Virus record (IMG/VR): IMGVR_UViG_3300045988_062123
Coordinates: 1 to 58,279 of that record
DNA: 58,279 nt
Source of the DNA: a virus
Reading direction: 5' to 3' (one strand)
Positions within the stretch are counted from its first letter, which is position 1, and each line of letters starts with the position of its first letter. This document shows, one piece after another, positions 57,428 through 57,494 of this stretch. The notes beneath the pieces were generated by a model that saw only the letters and a program-made list of their open reading frames with translations, had not been told where the DNA came from and made no database searches. A program made the position numbers and the translations under genes.

Positions 57428-57494
57428 GGCTTGTCTCATCAGTGGCAAGGTTGCCAGCCTACACCAGACCGCCCGCGCTGGGCGGTTTCGACTT
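57428..57494 (-). ncRNA. Hammerhead ribozyme, type II topology (HHR-B)
   Basis: The minus strand reads GUC-GAAA-[CCGCCC agcgc GGGCGG]-UC|UGGUGUAGGCUGGCAACCUUGCCA-CUGAUGA-GAC. All core nucleotides are present, including the A15.1-U16.1 pair and C17 at 57467. Confidence 0.8.

Follow-up and report, generated by a model that had tools for sequence, protein, structure and literature searches.

The window, by which the whole stretch of DNA analysed is meant (58,279 nt), holds the genome of a tailed phage, ~58 kb long, which encodes an SPP1-type portal and a large terminase. The relationships of the portal protein are with phages of human faeces and, distantly, with a phage of [Clostridium] innocuum, and the phage group is an uncultured human-gut lineage of the Caudoviricetes. 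A host search through bacterial genomes returned two unclassified MAG contigs only, and blastn of the region described here against GenBank phages returned no match.

Two type II hammerheads, HHR-A and HHR-B, are encoded within a block of small ORFs without family matches, on its coding strand (Table 1). No informative family emerged when the flanking and bracketed ORFs were all scanned with Pfam and PHROGs. The predicted cleavage sites, C57761 (C17 of HHR-A) and C57467 (C17 of HHR-B), are 294 nt apart and enclose exactly one ORF, of 70 aa. The 146-aa ORF that follows has its SD (GGAGGG, 57414-57409) 12 nt past the tail of HHR-B and its ATG at 57400. The promoter-like and terminator-like sites at the two ends suggest a unit of ~1 kb in the order ORF40, HHR-A, ORF70, HHR-B, ORF146. 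Packing within the unit is tight, and its description is one of the additions made here: in 152 of 168 of the unique relatives described below, stem II comes 2-3 nt after the start of the upstream stop codon, and across the family the next start codon lies 15-35 nt past the tail.

The minus-strand sequence of HHR-B is exactly as transcribed in an earlier, sequence-only reading of the same DNA, which had taken it for a second type II hammerhead. Its core is complete (CUGAUGA 57442-57436, GAA 57489-57487, U57468 and C57467). The pairs next to the core, breakage of any of which was a ground for rejecting candidates in Perreault et al. (2011; PMC3088659), are intact: A57486-U57468 (A15.1-U16.1), G57435-C57490 (G10.1-C11.1) and U57466-A57443 (N1.1-N2.1). 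Loops cap stems I and III and stem II is open, which is the type II permutation, and the match to the family model runs over its full length (model positions 1-66). The stem III hairpin was calculated at -13.3 kcal/mol in isolation, with C17 attached. The cleavage coordinate of the earlier reading, 3' of C57467, was correct; its end of the element at 57428 fell one base short, since homologues favour the pseudoknot register UGGC:GCCA, of which A57427 is the last base. Core, topology, conservation in homologous spacers and covariation bear out the class assignment. As far as sequence can tell, HHR-B is a real second type II hammerhead ribozyme with every defining sequence and structure feature of the class, and self-cleavage is predicted.

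Table 1. Positions of HHR-B, its parts and the neighbouring features in the window.
Feature	Position	Strand	Remarks
Promoter-like site TTGACA-17-TACAAT	57934..57962	-	TG extension; extended -10 type, upstream of 40-aa ORF; 11/12 consensus matches; consensus match only
HHR-A, partner type II hammerhead	57720..57784	-	RF02276 45.3 bits, above gathering score 37
70-aa ORF, sole gene bracketed by HHR-A and HHR-B	57495..57707	-	No family match
Stop codon UAA of 70-aa ORF	57497-57495	-	Followed by AA, then stem II
HHR-B, complete type II hammerhead ribozyme	57427..57492	-	Stem II 5' strand to end of pseudoknot tail; read from sequence
Stem II 5' strand GUC	57490..57492	-	C57490 = C11.1; pairs with GAC 57433-57435
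Core G12 A13 A14 and A15.1 (GAAA)	57486..57489	-	Direct reading
Stem III hairpin	57468..57486	-	7 bp; ACCGCCC 57486-57480, loop AGCGC 57479-57475, GGGCGGU 57474-57468; A15.1-U16.1 = 57486-57468
C17	57467	-	Position after U16.1; predicted cleavage between C57467 and U57466
Stem I hairpin UGGUG-U-AGG / loop CUGGCAA / CCU-UGCCA	57443..57466	-	
Pseudoknot, loop I side, UGGC	57453..57456	-	Partner GCCA 57427-57430
Core C3-A9, CUGAUGA	57436..57442	-	Direct reading and RF02276 match
Stem II 3' strand GAC	57433..57435	-	G57435 = G10.1
Tail AAGCCA	57432-57427	-	
Pseudoknot, 3'-tail side, GCCA	57427..57430	-	Matches tail consensus AGCCa of RF02276
146-aa ORF directly downstream of HHR-B	56960..57400	-	110 homologues, all hypothetical
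Terminator-like hairpin, U-rich tail	56937..56953	-	Just after 146-aa ORF; consensus match only

Model scores and predicted folds

RF02276 (Hammerhead_II) matched HHR-B over the full length of the model (57424-57493) with 35.1 bits, 1.9 bits short of the gathering score of 37, which is an annotation cut-off and implies no biological property. The E-value for both strands of the whole window was 0.002, and the local one 2e-5. The shortfall arises in the interior of stem I, which the model skips via a local end. Every tested relative in the HHR-B sub-lineage scored 29-36 bits and the neighbouring A-type copies 45-70 bits; because the whole lineage scores low, the sub-threshold value reflects the curated model and not decay. 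This systematic under-scoring by Rfam is a second addition, and with the lineage lying just below the threshold, about half of the ribozymes of these phages are overlooked by annotation that applies the threshold.

The argument of the earlier reading against a chance match was upheld by the RF02276 E-values and by two further searches. The core pattern CGAAAC-N(10-30)-GTC-N(14-34)-CTGATGAG occurred twice in the window, at HHR-A and HHR-B, and gave 0 matches in 100 dinucleotide-preserving shuffles (0 expected against 2 seen). A covariance model of the HHR-B sub-lineage (R1), run with filters off, gave 86.9 bits for HHR-B (57423-57496), 38.2 for the second copy, HHR-A, and nothing above 12.1 bits elsewhere in the 58-kb window. 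Other ribozyme classes, including twister, pistol and hatchet, gave no match in the window at E ≤ 1. Comparison of MFE folding with shuffles was uninformative (z = -0.36 for HHR-B and -0.37 for HHR-A), since the signal of such small ribozymes sits in the core and in covariation.

The active nested fold of HHR-B was predicted at -20.6 kcal/mol, to which the pseudoknot adds about -4.2, against -23.4 for the MFE structure, so that the modelled active fold with its pseudoknot is about as stable as the MFE. In the predicted centroid structure of the window copy a 5-bp hairpin, UGGCA-ACCU-UGCCA (57443-57456, minus strand), dominates; it competes with stem I, would sequester pseudoknot bases and could slow folding. 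The hairpin is weakened in V2 relatives (UUGCA) and is therefore probably incidental.

This hairpin, together with a score below the Rfam threshold (35.1 against 37), a pseudoknot of only 4 bp and core changes in relatives (G12A in L006, U4C in many V3 copies) that indicate that decay does occur, would suit an inactive or very slow relic caught in a misfold, with HHR-A as the only functional ribozyme in this phage. Such a relic is very unlikely. The core of the window copy is fully canonical (C3-A9, G12-A14, A15.1-U16.1, C17 and G10.1-C11.1), and low RF02276 scores are a property of the whole lineage and so of the model. Moreover, conservation extends over 23 distinct sub-lineage sequences, in which stem I and the pseudoknot have changed in a compensatory manner, the predicted stability of the active fold about equals that of the MFE, and 4 bp satisfies the pseudoknot criterion of Perreault et al. 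(PMC3088659).

Covariation among homologues and the pseudoknot register

Homologues of the 146-aa gene were found in 52 IMG/VR loci, most of them with a type II hammerhead immediately upstream, in the same place. A structure-aware parser identified 82 hammerhead instances (36 unique) in the 52 loci and, once viral contigs had been screened for a pattern, 282 (178 unique) in 212 sequences including the window. For covariation, 103 hits from all lineages, of which 96 were distinct, were aligned to the HHR-B lineage model. Standard pairs were present in 99.5% of stem cells in the 96 distinct relatives, compared with 80.4% in column shuffles and 30-59% when partners were slid by 1-3 columns; fitting the alignment to the structure inflates the percentage paired and leaves the diversity of pair types uninflated. 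Both sides changed in 13 of the 17 stem pairs (237 cells in the 96 sequences), comprising across the family four of the six stem III pairs and all eight stem I pairs, and the middle pair of stem II was U-A in 77 and C-G in 19. The same picture was obtained from a tabulation of unique copies by position from the core, which is independent of the model-fitted alignment: stem III position 3 was C-G in 100 and G-C in 68, stem I position 1 was U-A in 111, A-U in 44 and C-G in 13, and stem II position 2 was U-A in 117 and C-G in 48.

Within the HHR-B sub-lineage (23 distinct sequences) stem I was 100% paired, with changes from G-C to U-A and from U-G to C-G, and GUC/GAC of stem II was invariant. Stem I of close relatives contains a stepwise series C-G, U-G, U-A. 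The 11 core nucleotides were nearly invariant among relatives; C17 was present in 168 of 168 unique relatives and GAA (G12-A14) in 167. None of the three helices of HHR-B has the sequence of its HHR-A counterpart, yet all of them pair, as the earlier reading had stated, and the search for non-compensatory stem changes that it had named as a possible refutation came out in favour of the ribozyme, on the paired fraction in the 96 distinct relatives given above.

The position of the GC-rich stem III hairpin right after a stop codon, where a terminator is usually found, raises the alternative that the element is a structured spacer without catalysis and with no more than the look of a hammerhead, for instance an intrinsic terminator, an attenuator or a site for protein binding. 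This alternative is extremely improbable. The invariant positions are exactly those of the hammerhead catalytic core and the variable positions exactly those of the helices, and the pseudoknot specific to type II covaries. The sequence after stem III (GGGCGGUCUGGUG) contains no U-run and a terminator scan made no call, and a Rho-independent terminator at stem III was rejected on both grounds.

For the pseudoknot between loop I and the 3' tail, two registers tie in the window with 4 bp and -4.2 kcal/mol each: GGCU:AGCC (57459-57456 with 57431-57428), which had been proposed as covarying between HHR-A and HHR-B, and UGGC:GCCA (57456-57453 with 57430-57427). They were compared in the 23 distinct sub-lineage sequences, which align gap-free across the pseudoknot region. 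The proposed register proved to be wrong: only 57.6% of its cells were paired, with two of the four pairs broken in 19-20 of the 23 sequences, against 87% for UGGC:GCCA, and GGCU:AGCC was rejected. The second pair of UGGC:GCCA underwent a swap on both sides from G-C to U-A (U-A 19, G-C 4). In the nearest relative (L001/L002), which reads GGAU, the GGCU:AGCC helix is broken and UGGC:GCCA is intact, and the latter also agrees with the consensus letters of RF02276. The true pseudoknot of HHR-B, as predicted from these homologues, is UGGC:GCCA. The corrected register is the third addition, and is the one that any mutational test must target.

This contact, defined as 4 bp or more joining loop I to the bases immediately 3' of stem II, is present in HHR-B. 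Its forms across lineages include UAGCC:GGCUA (HHR-A), UGGUC:GACCA, UGAUC:GAUCA, UGCCC:GGGCA, UGACC:GGUCA, CAGCC:GGCUG and UGCUC:GAGCA, the first three being A-type variants. A loop/tail score of at least 4 was reached by 89% of cognate combinations and 26% of non-cognate ones. A MAFFT alignment mixing the V1 and V3 lineages (A1) was left out of the pseudoknot counts because its loop I register was shifted.

Several variants were seen among the relatives. In the V3 lineage, 44 of 67 unique sequences carry a U4 to C change in the core (CCGAUGA) with stems and pseudoknot intact (for example L025:2914-2978, L004:2910-2981 and L006:2911-2980, the L006 copy having also G12A). An extra U between A9 and G10.1 (CUGAUGA-U-GGC) is present in A-type relatives such as L026:2598-2666, in 59 of 168 unique relatives; HHR-A of the window is without it and has a stem II of only 2 bp. 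A subset of candidates with a short, 17-nt stem I (e.g. TGGCAGTCACGCTGCCA) had no tail complementarity, and may use a different tertiary contact or be false positives of the parser.

Gene exchange between conserved ribozymes

Each ribozyme pair brackets exactly one ORF, and the ORFs that occupy this slot in relatives are of at least five unrelated kinds (53, 69, 70, 74 and about 127 aa). Homology of 92-96% links the window with L001/L003 at both HHR-A and HHR-B and vanishes in the ORF between them, and the same cassette ORF was found with different 3' ribozyme lineages in different phages. Some relatives contain arrays of 3-4 type II hammerheads, 230-560 nt apart, with one small ORF per interval, usually in the order A-type, then the lineage of HHR-B (V1/2), then V3. 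HHR-A and HHR-B are thus more than the two independent copies of the earlier reading: they belong to distinct paralogous lineages that recur in a fixed order in related phages.

The three features of exchange, namely the loss of homology in the ORF alone, the unrelated ORFs in the slot and the recurrence of one cassette with different 3' ribozymes, would also be expected if the role lay in the DNA, the hammerhead sequences of ~70 bp acting as homology arms for cassette exchange and RNA cleavage being secondary or vestigial. This is improbable. Pairing in the RNA is clearly under selection: DNA arms have no need of the compensatory changes that keep all three stems and the pseudoknot, nor of a nearly invariant core, and neighbouring ribozymes in one phage differ in every helix, which would make recombination between them rarer. 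Cassette exchange would follow from the conserved boundaries, a reading preferred to one in which exchange itself was selected for.

A combined arrangement was also considered, in which the array would yield ribozyme-insulated single-ORF mRNAs while the ribozyme DNA serves as swap junctions, giving integrase-free, integron-like shuffling of accessory genes. This was judged rather unlikely; if true, the orthogonal lineages (A, V1/2 and V3) would prevent misfolding and deletion between neighbours. In a bolder variant the excised 294-nt cassette RNA may be circularised. Its ends (5'-OH and 2',3'-cyclic phosphate) are predicted to be ligatable and a chimeric stem II (GUC with GAU) could form, and the two ribozyme halves could make a chimeric hammerhead. 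Distances from cleavage site to cleavage site in the family (238, 286, 294, 314, 462 and 464 nt) follow no multiple-of-three pattern and the ORFs have stop codons; a rolling-circle or circular-mRNA reading was unsupported on these grounds. Considered against the hammerhead-bounded circular RNAs of retrozymes and viroid-like elements, the locus is an ordinary dsDNA phage operon, with no length pattern.

Directly upstream of the 146-aa gene homologue the hammerhead is absent in five loci (L012, L013, L014, L023 and L051), so that the ribozyme is dispensable at that junction in some phages; in L014, L023 and L051 hammerheads are present further upstream. In distant relatives of the 70-aa ORF (L053-L091) the parser found no hammerheads. 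Between close relatives, homology breaks at the ribozymes (window 57692-57496 against L001:2541-2905 and L003); in L001 the bracketed ORF is replaced by an unrelated one, and in L003 it is deleted along with HHR-B. Arrays were located at L099:7482-8599 (minus strand) and in L183, L192, L195, L121, L138, L156, L104 and L111.

Proposed processing of the phage transcript

HHR-B is quite probably a functional ribozyme that cuts a polycistronic phage mRNA into hairpin-capped single-gene mRNAs. The sequence, fold, covariation, positional conservation and cassette architecture were established directly, and cleavage is expected from membership in a biochemically characterised family. In that family, type II hammerheads cleave 3' of C17 to leave 2',3'-cyclic phosphate and 5'-OH ends, and mutagenesis showed that, at physiological Mg2+, cleavage is fast only with the pseudoknot between loop I and the tail (Perreault et al., 2011; PMC3088659). 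HHR-B is on the same strand as the flanking ORFs, with which it is presumably co-transcribed. A short mRNA of early type would run from the promoter-like site through the 40-aa ORF, HHR-A, the 70-aa ORF, HHR-B and the 146-aa ORF to the terminator-like hairpin. Within it the HHR-B RNA would fold into three helices round the core, the UGGC:GCCA pseudoknot keeping stems I and II parallel, and would cut its own backbone at a point between ORF70 and ORF146, 3' of C57467. The upstream product would keep its stop codon and finish with the GC-rich stem III hairpin of 7 bp, bearing a 2',3'-cyclic phosphate, and the downstream product would begin with a 5'-OH directly where the stem I hairpin starts, some 50 nt ahead of the next SD. 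With HHR-A cutting as well, the operon would be converted into hairpin-capped monocistronic mRNAs. The stability and translation of each cistron would presumably be uncoupled from those of its neighbours, as by a natural insulator, and hairpin-capped, insulated cistrons fit ORFs that are freely exchanged while the boundaries stay.

RiboJ, reportedly engineered as an insulator from a satellite-RNA hammerhead by Lou et al. in 2012, is likewise a self-cleaving ribozyme upstream of an RBS that strips off upstream RNA and leaves a 5' hairpin on the mRNA; RiboJ is engineered, whereas the insulating role of the natural phage element is put forward here. RNase J1 of B. subtilis has the 5'-OH product of the glmS ribozyme among its targets, so that cleavage could destabilise and not stabilise the downstream mRNA. 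Unmasking of the RBS was rejected as a function: accessibility of the downstream gene was the same before and after cleavage in silico (unpaired probability of the SD 0.509 in both), which offers no simple translational benefit.

Hammerheads flanking single prophage genes have been described, and processing of long phage transcripts into single-gene mRNAs was proposed for them (Perreault et al., 2011; PMC3088659). A three-ribozyme arrangement in an Agrobacterium tumefaciens prophage cleaves upon expression in E. coli (Perreault et al., 2011, Figure 3; PMC3088659). In D. vulgaris three predicted type II hammerheads cleave in vivo, one of them drawn beside genes of phage origin (PMC8782182). A 2019 review repeats the role in transcript processing and describes the function of bacterial and phage hammerheads as undetermined (PMC6765202), and no tested function of phage hammerheads came to light in a search of the literature. 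The present locus has the same arrangement as the prophage genes, with close-set coding-strand ribozymes bracketing single small genes of varying identity: two hammerheads, one 70-aa ORF, a variable slot and arrays of 3-4 in relatives. It differs in belonging to uncultured gut Caudoviricetes, in exchange of the slot between near-identical backbones, in an upstream stop codon that, for about 90% of copies, touches or overlaps stem II, and in neighbours that are distinct paralogous lineages in fixed order (A, V1/2, V3). The class, the pseudoknot and the bracketing of single phage genes have been known since 2011, and knowledge of ribozymes is therefore unchanged.

Compared with the type II family as described (RF02276; PMC3088659), HHR-B shares the short, 3-bp stem II, the pseudoknot consensus letters (UGG.. 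: GCCA) and an intergenic position in phage DNA. It lies under the threshold by the margin given above, as its sub-lineage does with 29-36 bits, has a longer stem I (24 nt) with a bulged U, and has two A residues, not one, between stem II and the pseudoknot. HHR-A and HHR-B are of the same class, strand, operon and pseudoknot type; they differ in every helix, in stem II (2 bp in HHR-A, 3 bp in HHR-B), in the pseudoknot (UAGCC:GGCUA, 5 bp, against UGGC:GCCA, 4 bp) and in score (45.3 against 35.1 bits). Twister, pistol and hatchet occur in similar bacterial and phage gene contexts, presumably with an interchangeable role, and have unrelated folds (PMC6765202).

With a compact natural unit of ~1 kb and dozens of variants, including cassette swaps, ribozyme loss (L003, L012-14) and frequent U4C, these phages offer a convenient test bed for the purpose of bacterial and phage hammerheads.

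Two observations were made on other genes of the window. The large terminase ORF (5650-8442, plus strand, 930 aa) contains a LAGLIDADG_3 domain at residues 376-433, and its residues 132-400 match PHROG primase and helicase-loader families, a pattern suggestive of an intein within the terminase. The minus-strand block ends with an ORF (55482-55973, minus strand) that has an HExxH motif and a weak, sub-threshold match to Peptidase_M78 (ImmA/IrrE-like family).
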